25,807 nucleotides of DNA from Promethearchaeia archaeon (GTDB taxonomy: Archaea > Asgardarchaeota > Lokiarchaeia > Sigyniarchaeales > SOKP01). The stretch covers positions 1-25,807 of the forward strand of contig JAWOFX010000155.1 in assembly GCA_046497275.1 (NCBI GenBank), in the 5' to 3' direction. Under the pieces are notes generated by a model. That model did no database searches. It was not told where the DNA came from and worked only from the letters and a program-made list of their open reading frames with translations. The translations under genes and the position numbers were made by a program. Numbering within the stretch: the stretch's first letter is position 1; the number at the start of each line of letters is the position of its first letter. Shown here piece after piece: positions 6,831-10,117 of this stretch.

Positions 6831-8198
6831 ATGTCTGAACTCAATGAAATAAAACGAGAAACAGGCAGGAAAGAAAGGATTATCTTCGGGATGCCTAGAT
6901 TAGGGACATCCATTATATTAGGAATCGAAGGATGGGCATTACTCACGCTTTATACATCGGGATATGGTTTAGATCCTTTTCGAACTGGTTTTGCAATTGC
7001 CATGGGGTACTTAACGATCGCAGCATCTCAGTTCTTGCTTGGATGGCTCAGTGATGCAAAATATACAAAATATGGAAGAAGGAAACCTTATATATTCATA
7101 TTTGCACCAATCTTAGGAATTTCTATCATCTTTTTATTATTACCCAATTTAGTACTTCCTGACATGAATAATAAAGACATACTTTTCTTCTGGTTATTAA
7201 TATGGGATATTCTTTTCAGAGCAAGTTATGCAGTGACCACACCATATCAGGCGTGGATGGCAGAAGTGTTTAGTGTTAATGAAAGACCAAAAGTTTCCCA
7301 AGTGCAAAACACTTTTAACTACATTGGTAATGGTTTAATGGCATTATTTTCACTTATAATCTTGACAGATTATATTGATTTATTAGAACTGGATATCTAT
7401 GCGCAATATTCACTTTTTACAATACCAGTAATTATTTTTGGGGCACTAACGATAATATTGTTTTATTTAGTTGCGATTTTACTTCCCACGGAACCAAAAT
7501 ATGAGATAAAATCCAATATGATGGAAAGTCTTAAAACAATCATTAAAAATAAAAATTTTATGTTAATTATTTTTATGGTCGGGATCTCAGGCCTGGGTTG
7601 GACAATGGTAACAACTACAATGTTGAAATATACCGAGGATGCTTTAAATCTAGATGGGACCGATTATTTAATTGTTGCAGTTTTTCTTTTAGTGTTTATT
7701 TTTATCTTTCTTTATATTTGGAGAAGATCCATAGAAAAATACGGCAAAAAATCTACTCTCCTAAACGTCTTTCTTTTAGCAGTAGTTTTCCTTCCAATTA
7801 CATTAATTGGATTAATTCCAATGTCATCCTACTTGGTCTTTGGAATTATCTTTATAATTGGTATTGGCGCAGTATTAGGTGGATGGTTCTTGTTCCCATA
7901 TATTGTTTATGCGGATGTTGCTGAAGATGATCAAAAAAAAACTGGAGAATTAAAAGCAGGCATTTATGCGGGCTTCCCTTCGATTATATTAAATATCTTC
8001 CAAGCATTTGGAGCATTCCTTATCGGTGTGATCCTTTCAATTCCTGTATATTACAATCCTACGGCGGCTATTGAACCATATTCTATCGGATTGGTTTTAT
8101 GGGGGCCTCTGGCTTCTATTGTTCTGATTATAGCTTATTTCTATACGAAAAAGTACGTGATTTTAGATTTTGAATGGGAAGAACAAATTAAAATTTAA
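6831..8198 (+). CDS. MFS transporter, glycoside-pentoside-hexuronide (MFS_2/MelB-like) family
   Basis: About 12 TM helices, GWLSDAKYTKYGRRKPY loop motif, PYQAWMAE and YADVAEDDQKKTGELKAGIYAG. Confidence 0.85.
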   Translation: MSELNEIKRETGRKERIIFGMPRLGTSIILGIEGWALLTLYTSGYGLDPFRTGFAIAMGYLTIAASQFLLGWLSDAKYTKYGRRKPYIFIFAPILGISIIFLLLPNLVLPDMNNKDILFFWLLIWDILFRASYAVTTPYQAWMAEVFSVNERPKVSQVQNTFNYIGNGLMALFSLIILTDYIDLLELDIYAQYSLFTIPVIIFGALTIILFYLVAILLPTEPKYEIKSNMMESLKTIIKNKNFMLIIFMVGISGLGWTMVTTTMLKYTEDALNLDGTDYLIVAVFLLVFIFIFLYIWRRSIEKYGKKSTLLNVFLLAVVFLPITLIGLIPMSSYLVFGIIFIIGIGAVLGGWFLFPYIVYADVAEDDQKKTGELKAGIYAGFPSIILNIFQAFGAFLIGVILSIPVYYNPTAAIEPYSIGLVLWGPLASIVLIIAYFYTKKYVILDFEWEEQIKI

Positions 8199-8320
8199 AA
8201 ATTTTTTTTCTAATTCTTTTTAAAACTTCAAAAAATAAACTAAATTATAGTTATGAAAGAGTTTATCTAATAAAAAAGAAGGAAATAAAAAATTAAATCA
8301 ACATAATCGGTTAGAACCTA

Positions 8321-8595
8321 TTAAAATCTTCGATCCTTTGCTATTATCTCAACATTCAATGCTTCTGGTCCTTTACCATCATCTTCATTTTCTTTTAGTA
8401 TAAATTCGACCTCATCGCCTTGATCAAGTTTTTTGAACCCTTCCATATCGATATTCGAGTAATGGACAAATACATCTTCTTCTTGGTCCTTTACTGCGAT
8501 AAATCCATATCCTTTCCGCAAAAAGAGGATTTCTCTATTTTGTTGCGGTAATCAAACCACTTGACAAAGCCAGTTCTCTTTTCACCTTCAGACAT
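8321..8595 (-). CDS. csp: Cold-shock domain protein (CspA-like), split gene: exon 1 8595-8543, exon 2 8513-8321; predicted spliced product 81 aa
   Basis: ATG at 8595 gives MSEGEKRTGFVKWFDYR. The second frame gives KGYGFI (RNP1), DVFVHYS (RNP2), GFKKL..GDEVEF and KGPEALNV. The two parts are separated by 29 nt and are out of frame. Joining 53 + 193 nt gives 246 nt = 81 codons + stop. Confidence 0.9.
8514..8542 (-). other. Putative bulge-helix-bulge (BHB)-type mRNA intron, 29 nt
   Basis: The mRNA reads UA-CCGC-AA^C-AAAA(U)AGAG-AAAUC-CUCUUUUU-GCGG-AA^A-GGAU. This gives a 4-bp central helix CCGC/GCGG, two 3-nt bulges (AAC, AAA) and an 8-bp intron stem. Cleavage after the 2nd nt of each bulge removes 29 nt and restores the frame (CGC AAA GGA = R K G). 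The outer exon helix is weak. Confidence 0.75.
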
Positions 8596-8755
8596 TAATC
8601 AAAACCTGCTTATCTTACTTCTATTTTGTTTATCTATTATATTTTTATAGAGTTAAATAGAGAAATAAATTTTAATTTTTAAATTTTGATTTTGTATTAA
8701 CGTCAGAATCTAAAGCAATAATAAGATAAATAATCTAATATTATAGAAAACATCA

Positions 8756-10117
8756 ATGAGTATTTTCGATAAAGTAATAGAGATATACAATAACGAATTC
8801 TTATGTATTTCTTGTTTAGGCAGGATGTTTTCTTTGTTGGGAACGAATACGACAAACAAAGAGCGAGGTGATTCATTATTATTATCACTCACAATGGATC
8901 TTCATCAAAAATTATTATCTGGTGAGCAAATAGATAGAGAAAAGGCTAAGCAAAATCTCATTATTTTATCTGAAAAAGCAAGATATCTTCCAGCAAAATT
9001 AGTTCTCGAAAAAGAAGGAATAGAAAGTTTTTGGAAATCAGAAAAACCAGATTGTTATATATGCCACAATATCTTCGATAATTTAGAAAAATATGCCAAA
9101 AAAGCACAAGAAAAAGTTTCTGATTATGAATTCACATCTTTTTTAGTAGGTTCGAGCCCGGATGCGATTATTCTAAATAAAGAGGATAAATTCAAGGTAA
9201 CCAATCATATTCTTGAGGCAGAATCATTTAAATCACATTTCAATAGAGAGATAGGAAAACTGTTATCAGAAATATTTGGCAAAGAGCCAGAATTTCATTA
9301 TCCCGATCTTACGTTAATCTATACCATAAATTATGAAACTTTTTCGATTAATTTAATTATCCGCTCACTATTCATTTATGGGCGATACAAAAAACTCATT
9401 CGAGGTATACCCCAAACTCGGTGGCCTTGTGGAAAATGTAATGGGAAAGGGTGTGAAGCTTGTGATTTTACAGGAAAACAGTATGAAACCAGTGTTGAAG
9501 AATTAATTTGTCAAGAATTTGTAATAGCCTCTCAAGCTGAAGGTTCCAAATTTCATGGTGCTGGGAGAGAAGATATTGATGTTCGAATGTTAGGTTCAGG
9601 AAGACCCTTTATTTTAGAACTTATCAATCCAAAGATAAGAACCTTGGATTTGATTCAGATTAAACAAAAGATTAATTCAAAAAATGAAGGAAAGGTTGAA
9701 GTGGAGAATTTAAGATATAGTGATAAAAATGAAGTAATACAGATCAAAGAAGAGGCAGAAGATACACAAAAAACCTATAGAGCACTCATCAGAGGGGAAG
9801 AAGAAATAAAACAATCTGAATTTGATCAAAAACTAAAATTAATTAAACAGCAAATTGAAGAAGAAATACTTGAGCAGCGAACCCCTCATAGGGTATCTCA
9901 TCGTAGAGCAGATAAAGTAAGAAATAAAAAAATTTATGAGATCGAGGGTACATATCTAAAGCCCGATCTTTTTGAATTTCTTATAAAAAGCCAAGGTGGG
10001 ACATATATTAAAGAATTAATTACCGGTGATCAAGGGAGAACTTCACCCTCTCTAACCGAAATTTTCGGATTTGCATTAATATGTGAGCAACTTGATGTAG
10101 TTAATATTAATTCTTAA
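8756..10117 (+). CDS. pus10: tRNA pseudouridine(54/55) synthase Pus10
   Basis: N-terminal CxxC..CxxC, THUMP-like region, YGRYKKLIRGIPQTRW, catalytic FHGAGREDIDVRMLGSGRPF and QGGTYIKELI. It sits upstream of rpl21e as in the conserved archaeal cluster. Confidence 0.95.
   Translation: MSIFDKVIEIYNNEFLCISCLGRMFSLLGTNTTNKERGDSLLLSLTMDLHQKLLSGEQIDREKAKQNLIILSEKARYLPAKLVLEKEGIESFWKSEKPDCYICHNIFDNLEKYAKKAQEKVSDYEFTSFLVGSSPDAIILNKEDKFKVTNHILEAESFKSHFNREIGKLLSEIFGKEPEFHYPDLTLIYTINYETFSINLIIRSLFIYGRYKKLIRGIPQTRWPCGKCNGKGCEACDFTGKQYETSVEELICQEFVIASQAEGSKFHGAGREDIDVRMLGSGRPFILELINPKIRTLDLIQIKQKINSKNEGKVEVENLRYSDKNEVIQIKEEAEDTQKTYRALIRGEEEIKQSEFDQKLKLIKQQIEEEILEQRTPHRVSHRRADKVRNKKIYEIEGTYLKPDLFEFLIKSQGGTYIKELITGDQGRTSPSLTEIFGFALICEQLDVVNINS

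Follow-up and report, generated by a model that had tools for sequence, protein, structure and literature searches.

The window, a stretch of 25,807 nucleotides, is contig C121 of the genome of a Promethearchaeia archaeon (NCBI GenBank assembly GCA_046497275.1, contig JAWOFX010000155.1) and carries on its minus strand a cold-shock protein gene (csp) whose coding sequence is interrupted by 29 nucleotides. These 29 nucleotides are very probably a bulge-helix-bulge (BHB) pre-mRNA intron spliced by the tRNA-splicing endonuclease EndA and by RtcB. The genome comprises 3.85 Mb in 188 contigs, is 98.9% complete and has a G+C content of 30%. The nearest csp loci in named records belong to metagenome-assembled genomes (MAGs) of the Promethearchaeota/Promethearchaeia, the Asgard phylum formerly called Lokiarchaeota, in agreement with the Asgard host that an earlier note on this DNA had proposed from its sequence.

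The interrupted csp gene

Read from the ATG at 8595-8593 on the minus strand, the csp frame encodes MSEGEKRTGFVKWFDYR, breaks after codon 17 and runs on as NKIEKSSFCGKDMDLSQ to a TAA at 8493-8491; the unspliced open reading frame (ORF) at 8491..8595 therefore encodes 34 amino acids. The downstream part of the cold-shock domain (CSD) lies in a separate frame, an ORF of 66 amino acids (8321..8521) that begins at an internal TTG (8521) within the insert. The Pfam CSD profile (PF00313) matches this ORF with an E-value of 6.5e-20 over profile positions 11-64 only, and because of this limited span the first beta-strand (KWF) is missing from it. Deletion of 8542-8514 joins TAC CGC AA/A GGA TAT and produces an intact Csp of 81 amino acids, the length also found in P0002-P0007. 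The spliced protein contains KWFDYRKGYGFI and its CSD is complete, exon 1 giving GFVKWFDYR and exon 2 the rest, including the RNP1 motif KGYGFI, whose Lys codon is divided by the intron, and the RNP2 motif VFVHY. The parts of the gene are as follows.

8543..8595, minus strand: csp exon 1, 17 codons (MSEGEKRTGFVKWFDYR) and the AA of the Lys-18 codon
8514..8542, minus strand: predicted 29-nucleotide BHB intron, which shifts the frame; absent from three relatives (L098, L099 and L038) and present in a DNA contig of run X2
8321..8513, minus strand: csp exon 2, the last base of the Lys-18 codon, 63 codons (GYGFIAVK...AKDRRF) and the TAA at 8323-8321

The frame break, its coordinates, the 29-nucleotide length and the stop codon are all exactly as the earlier note gave them, and its claim that excision of 8542-8514 restores an 81-amino-acid Csp was reproduced by translation.

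Intronless orthologues at the same locus

Two positional orthologues of the window gene have no insert. P0003, from the JGI collection, is a protein of 81 amino acids with 89% identity over exon 2, and P0004, from a Logan DNA contig, has 81 amino acids and 86% identity; both start with MSEGE.RTGFVKWFDYRKG. On their contigs (L098 and L099) csp stands divergently beside Pus10, followed by L21e and Rpb4, and the window csp likewise adjoins Pus10. The 30-nucleotide 5' leader of the two genes is identical to that of the window, and the start codon is the same.

8596..8625, minus strand: 5' leader of csp, identical in the intronless positional orthologues (alignment A2)
8756..10117, plus strand: Pus10, 453 amino acids, the divergent neighbour (Pfam Pus10_C and Pus10_THUMP_arc), which serves as the synteny anchor

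In alignment A2 both orthologues read ...GAT TAC AGG (or AGA) AAA GGC... without an insert, and their protein junction is WFDYR/KGYGFI, as predicted for the spliced window csp. Exon 1 is identical to residues 1-17 of P0003 at 16 of 17 positions. Since syntenic orthologues with an identical leader carry the empty site exactly there, the predicted csp junction reads as exactly that of alleles without an interruption at this locus. Another relative lacking the insert, L038, with 86% identity over 78 columns, is the nearest neighbour of the window gene in the tree described below.

Structure of the insert

The insert and the flanking exon bases have the geometry of a BHB motif whose parts (the CCGC/GCGG helix, the AAC and AAA bulges and the intron hairpin) lie where the earlier note had put them. 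On the minus strand these are:

8545..8548, minus strand: 5' strand of the central helix (Ha), CCGC, exonic, made up of the last base of the Tyr codon and the Arg codon CGC
8516..8519, minus strand: 3' strand of the central helix (Hb), GCGG, intronic, 4/4 Watson-Crick pairs with Ha
8542..8544, minus strand: 5' bulge AAC, predicted cut between 8543 and 8542
8513..8515, minus strand: 3' bulge AAA, predicted cut between 8514 and 8513
8520..8541, minus strand: intron hairpin (helix h'), AAAAUAGAG / loop AAAUC / CUCUUUUU, with one bulged U
8508..8553, minus strand: weak exon-exon outer helix (h), 8553-8549 with 8512-8508, 3/5 positions can pair

In a BHB motif archaeal EndA cleaves each bulge 3' of its second base, and in archaeal pre-tRNA interrupted at position 37/38 the central helix joins the 5' exon with the 3' end of the intron, as it does here. 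Cuts after the second bulge nucleotide, which the earlier note had predicted, give a product equal to that of the intronless positional orthologues, and because the orthologue junction coincides with it the predicted 5' cut position is confirmed. The same note had cautioned that the outer helix was weak and the motif relaxed, and this caveat holds: the exon-exon helix has only three of five pairs, which makes the csp motif a relaxed BHB. In the constrained fold the intron hairpin has 3+4 base pairs and on its own is worth -2.5 kcal/mol.

Other interrupted csp genes and covariation of the central helix

Seven CSD loci were found in the genome: five intact genes, the window copy, and a paralogue on contig C20 with in-frame TAG and TGA codons. 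This paralogue (G000:C20) has a 30-nucleotide insert at the same codon as the window gene, of the form UCGC/AAA/GAAUAGGGG-AAUUU-CCUCUAUUU/GUGA/AUG with a 9-base-pair stem, and removal of the insert yields KWYDSRKGYGFI. Its BHB-constrained fold has an energy of -13.5 kcal/mol, versus -14.4 kcal/mol for the minimum free energy (MFE) fold. We also searched 161 genomes of the class and 400 of the phylum with a degenerate pattern (AARTGGTWY, a gap, then GGNTWYGGNTTYAT). Inserts in csp of 29, 30 and 31 nucleotides were found in three other genomes of the same genus, and inserts of 29 and 31 nucleotides in two genomes of the sister genus (42 searched); none of this kind was found elsewhere among the genomes searched. 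Other matches to the pattern (G218, G224, G126, G051, G159, G113, G237 and G289) were rejected as unrelated genes or upstream leaders, as were the matches of 64 nucleotides. When the inserts are removed, all seven products are intact Csp proteins of 70-89 amino acids.

At the register fixed by the protein junction the central helix has 4/4 pairs in all seven copies (G001 hand-read), and its pair sets are CCGC/GCGG, UCGC/GUGA, UCGU/GCGA (twice), CCAG/CUGG and CUAG/CUAG (twice). The presence of five different pair sets in seven copies points to compensatory change that keeps the helix, so the covariation of CCGC with GCGG that the earlier note had proposed looking for is found among the relatives. 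When the register was slid by 1-3 nucleotides, at most two of the four pairs remained in the six copies that had been run at the right register, a difference beyond what chance would give. The seventh copy, in G001, was scored 1/4 by the script; its cut was re-set by hand one base earlier, within a run of A that leaves the product unchanged, and this gave CCAG/CUGG, a hand reading only and one without slid-register controls. Pairs were counted by script, since MAFFT aligned the seven introns wrongly where their lengths differ and where the register is shifted by one base: in G001, G132 and G139 the cuts defined by the structure fall one base upstream, in phase 1 and not 2, with the same product. 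The Arg codon at the junction is CGC in both interrupted csp genes of this genome. CGC accounts for 4.4% of its Arg codons and AGA for 52.5%; at the junction the orthologues without an insert have AGG or AGA.

Selection, DNA support and public annotation

Within the window orthologue group the proportion of nonsynonymous differences (pN) is 0.11-0.19, versus 0.7-1.0 (saturated) for synonymous differences (pS). Where dS could be computed, dN/dS is 0.04-0.13, and pairs with and without introns behave alike. By these values both csp exons are under strong purifying selection, and the comparison with orthologues, which had been put forward as a way to recognize a decaying gene, finds conserved exons and no pseudogene-like decay.

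The presence of the 29 nucleotides in DNA is confirmed in an independent assembly. A contig of 1598 nucleotides from a DNA run of a different study (X2) covers 8150-8778 with eight substitutions and one 1-nucleotide insertion, none of them in the intron, and several further DNA runs contain 0.69-0.91 of the words of the stretch. Public gene calls for interrupted csp genes are truncated: those for the window gene (P0001/P0101) have 66 amino acids and start inside the intron, and P0014 (MBD3195560.1 / MBD3200174.1) is a 68-amino-acid call that starts inside the intron of a G004-type gene. In the protein collection only the truncated 66-amino-acid csp ORF was found, and no full-length product of the window gene. 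Public annotation has missed the csp introns, and because it calls truncated proteins, the gene content and pseudogene counts of these MAGs are biased.

Splicing enzymes and transcripts

Both splicing enzymes named in the earlier note, EndA and RtcB, are encoded in the genome. Two proteins, encoded at G000:C46:30059-30664 and G000:C168:8025-8627, carry both EndA domains (PF01974 and PF02778). One of them (L073, 201 amino acids) matches 3p1z_B, a tRNA-splicing endonuclease chain that we take to be the Aeropyrum catalytic EndA subunit, with an E-value of 3e-38, and keeps the Tyr/His/Lys triad. The second, of 200 amino acids, is divergent and lacks the active-site His, as would be expected of a structural beta subunit, and the genome is accordingly predicted to encode an alpha/beta EndA pair. 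There are two RtcB genes. Asgard archaea are reported to possess an (alpha-beta)2 EndA with an L1 loop, and enzymes of this type to cleave relaxed motifs (PMC5829648).

Eight metatranscriptome runs from salt lakes, X7, X8, X10-X14 and X16, contain part of the stretch. The junction TACCGCAA/AGGATATGG is absent from the JGI metagenome contigs, either exact or with a gap of 0-29 nucleotides, but nothing follows from this null, since the organism could simply be missing from those contigs. As a side observation, an RNA contig of 415 nucleotides from run X7 covers the 3' exon and its flank and ends at 8515, which is the last base common to the spliced and unspliced forms; it comes from a single run, shows neither a joint nor a loose end, and we do not count it as evidence.

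Inserts of the same kind in other genes

Inserts of this kind also break up at least four further conserved genes of the genome. In RpoA' a 30-nucleotide BHB insert (G000:C83:1644-1673) separates two Pfam Rpb1_1 matches that cover profile positions 2-73 and 74-312, and its removal restores GHFGH/IELARP. A gene for a prenyltransferase of the UbiA family has a 30-nucleotide insert (G000:C111:36426-36455) between matches to profile positions 3-48 and 53-231, and BHB inserts of 31 nucleotides occur in an AMP/thymidine phosphorylase-type gene (G000:C171:12136-12166) and in cdhA (G000:C46:5373-5403). At all four loci (L085-L088: RpoA', cdhA, phosphorylase-type and UbiA-type) removal of the insert makes the Pfam profile continuous. 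Since other such introns occur in the genome, the csp intron need not be a csp-specific device.

The earlier note had suggested scanning the genome for other genes split in this way. Our scan required a 4-base-pair helix, 3-nucleotide bulges and introns of 16-70 nucleotides, with filters on ORF rescue, hairpin energy and a codon-usage score. The four cases that it brought up, checked with Pfam on both exons, are clear, but the total does not clearly exceed the control. The signal is swamped by adjacent-gene junctions and shadow ORFs in a genome of 30% G+C, and a scan without a clear excess does not establish the number of mRNA introns in this genome.

Interpretation and alternative explanations

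If the insert is a BHB intron, the sequence of events can be proposed as follows. In the pre-mRNA the exonic CCGC would pair with the intronic GCGG, the AAC and AAA bulges would flank this helix, one on each strand, and what remains of the intron would fold into a hairpin. A heteromeric (alpha-beta) EndA would then cut after the second base of each bulge, and RtcB would join the exons (...CGC AA + A GGA...) and probably circularise the 29-mer. Only the spliced mRNA would encode the 81-amino-acid Csp, and the unspliced mRNA would give the 34-amino-acid peptide. Cleavage and ligation, together with the enzymes that perform them, are the part of this account that we infer.

Several results weigh against this account. 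Over the 48-nucleotide core the BHB-constrained fold is less stable than the local MFE fold (-8.8 versus -10.1 kcal/mol), and the 76-nucleotide region is not significantly more stable than its shuffles (z -1.64). The exon-exon helix is weak, not only in the window, where three of five pairs form, but across the seven copies, where between one and four of five do. No spliced csp transcript, exon-exon read or circular intron was seen; the contigs of RNA runs X7, X8 and X10 contain no splice joint, but none of them bridges 8516-8754, and they speak neither for nor against splicing. The genome scan gave no clear excess over a control with the 3' junction displaced by 1-2 nucleotides (best 13 versus about 6). 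Finally, five intact csp paralogues remain in the genome, and for this reason the window csp is not obviously indispensable.

One alternative is that the insert stays in the RNA as a structured block or switch and that the locus yields either the 34-amino-acid peptide or a truncated Csp started at TTG 8521. The start of the 66-amino-acid ORF at a TTG within the insert fits this possibility, as does the failure to see spliced RNA. However, a Csp without its KWF strand would miss CSD positions 1-10, yet exon 1 is conserved at 16 of 17 residues and keeps its frame in every copy, and the helix geometry fits the EndA cut sites to the base. We regard an unspliced block as quite improbable.

It could also be supposed that a random 29-nucleotide insertion inactivated one of the seven csp copies, which is now decaying as a pseudogene. 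A genome that keeps five uninterrupted csp paralogues might tolerate such a loss, and gene callers give only the truncated 66-amino-acid product (P0001, P0101). Against this, the seven interrupted genes, drawn from six genomes, have both exons open and conserved, pN lies well under pS, and the window gene shares exactly its 5' leader and start codon with the intact orthologues. The insert, moreover, always lies at the same codon and makes a 4/4 helix with the exon through compensatory changes, and essential genes such as RpoA' bear the same kind of insert. Taken together, these observations make a pseudogene very improbable.

The chance that the ribosome instead passes over the 29 nucleotides by programmed translational hopping, as in phage T4 gene 60, is slim. 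A hairpin does follow the break, and the direct repeats of G132 and G139 (13 and 8 nucleotides) could be take-off and landing sites, but as we read the sequences the window copy and the other copies from the same genus have no matched take-off and landing codons, and inserts of 29, 30 and 31 nucleotides restore the frame only at the BHB cut sites. We know of no hopping of the T4 gene 60 type in Archaea. An assembly or sequencing artefact, which might be suspected in a 188-contig MAG, has a negligible probability, given that the X2 DNA contig, which comes from another study, crosses the intron without any indel in it and that related inserts recur in other assemblies (three genomes of the same genus and two of the sister genus). 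A self-splicing group I or II intron was rejected outright, the insert having just 29 nucleotides versus the hundreds of nucleotides of a ribozyme core, and no Rfam family reaches threshold in 8250-8720.

Within the preferred reading of a spliced BHB intron, a further suggestion can be made about its function. Cold stabilises RNA structure, and Csp proteins melt it. The csp introns might therefore act as a feedback or temperature device, in which low temperature would favour formation of the marginally stable BHB, and with it EndA splicing and Csp synthesis, until accumulating Csp damped them again. We consider this unlikely. If it were true, it would explain why the same csp codon is occupied in four sub-lineages, by at least two unrelated intron sequences and in two registers one base apart, and tRNA-type splicing would be a regulated layer of mRNA expression in these archaea.

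Evolution of the csp introns

A maximum-likelihood tree of 19 Csp sequences has two clades, each with support of 100/99, and interrupted genes occur in both. They fall into four sub-lineages in two genera, each of which has an intronless close relative; the G002 gene, for example, with an intron of 29 nucleotides, is sister (100/98) to the intact csp on contig C172 of this genome. We compared three orthologues that have introns at the same codon, those of the window, G004:C7 (L024) and G001:C5 (L027). The window intron is 80% identical to that of G004, a value reached by 0/2000 shuffles, and about 50% identical to that of G001, which is background level. Its identity to the intron of the C20 paralogue is 70% (3/2000 shuffles). 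These values, together with the position of the G001 cuts one base upstream, suggest that the G001 intron is an independent gain at a hot spot.

The csp intron seems to be young and patchy, and to have moved or arisen repeatedly at one site. The simplest reading would be recent, repeated occupation of this site, partly by transfer between paralogues; gene conversion between csp paralogues would fit, and the CGC codon shared by the two interrupted genes of this genome agrees with it. In the sister-genus copies G132 and G139 the insert is flanked by direct repeats, of 13 nucleotides (GACTCTAGAAAAG) and 8 nucleotides. At these loci (L079, G132:C79:71881-71944, and L080, G139:C52:6013-6078) a CTAG palindrome within the repeats forms both halves of the helix, and the flanking repeats hint at the birth of an intron by local duplication. 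With presence and absence at one locus, related introns in paralogues and copies flanked by direct repeats, the csp family offers a clean natural experiment on intron gain. It bears in this way on the arrival of introns, which is an open question in the tRNA-intron literature.

Relationship to known introns

To our knowledge, crenarchaeal cbf5 has since 2002 been the sole documented case of an archaeal pre-mRNA intron. The cbf5 intron of Crenarchaeota has a BHB-like motif that is cut by EndA, and it has been lost in some lineages (PMC2738675). The introns of Aeropyrum, Sulfolobales and Desulfurococcales resemble the csp intron in being short, BHB-like and situated in coding sequence, and also in their tie to a hetero-oligomeric EndA and their lineage-specific presence and absence (PMC2738675 and references in PMC5829648). 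The csp intron would work like the cbf5 intron, in a new gene and phylum. It is found in another gene and in the Promethearchaeota and does not belong to the cbf5 intron lineage. Four sub-lineages carry an intron at this site, one genome having it in two paralogues, and occupancy of the site is patchy even where positional orthologues share the same leader and are 86-89% identical in protein sequence. A further difference is that the splicing of cbf5 has been shown experimentally, whereas that of csp is deduced from sequence.

Asgard tRNA genes of other classes are described as heavily interrupted by BHB introns (bioRxiv 10.64898/2026.10.13.758758), and these have the same motif and predicted enzyme as the csp intron. 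In csp, unlike in tRNA genes, the cuts have to leave the frame intact, and one of the two strands of the central helix also codes for protein, through the rare Arg codon CGC. The tRNA-intron preprint (bioRxiv 10.64898/2026.10.13.758758) does not treat protein-coding genes, and full-text searches, the coverage of which was incomplete, turned up no report of BHB introns in protein-coding genes of Asgard archaea. In the 98.9%-complete genome studied here ARAGORN reports only 19 tRNA genes, nine of them with introns, and most of its tRNA genes may be too interrupted for standard detection.

In eukaryotes the mRNAs of HAC1 and XBP1 are spliced through cleavage by IRE1 and ligation by Trl1 or RTCB (PMC6592678). 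These introns resemble the csp intron in that a short mRNA intron with stem-loop sites is removed by proteins only, independently of the spliceosome, with a tRNA ligase and a change of frame. They differ in that the endonuclease is IRE1 and not the tRNA-splicing endonuclease, and in that HAC1 and XBP1 form a regulated stress switch. If spliced as proposed, the csp intron carries mRNA splicing by protein enzymes over to the prokaryotes most closely related to eukaryotes, and it matters more as a well-controlled example of unpublished Asgard mRNA mini-introns than for csp itself.

Other observations on csp genes

Two observations were made on other csp genes. A csp gene from the same order (L077, G030:C30:6800-6864) reads GTVK*FNPKKGYGFI, with TAG in place of the TGG of the invariant Trp, which could be a sequencing error, a pseudogene or recoding. 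A conserved stretch, TGGTTTTAAA.TTGGTAAA.GGAAC.GT.AAATGGTTT, runs across the leader and the apparent TTG start of intact csp paralogues in several genera of the family (e.g. L013-L022) and may be a translation-initiation or regulatory element.

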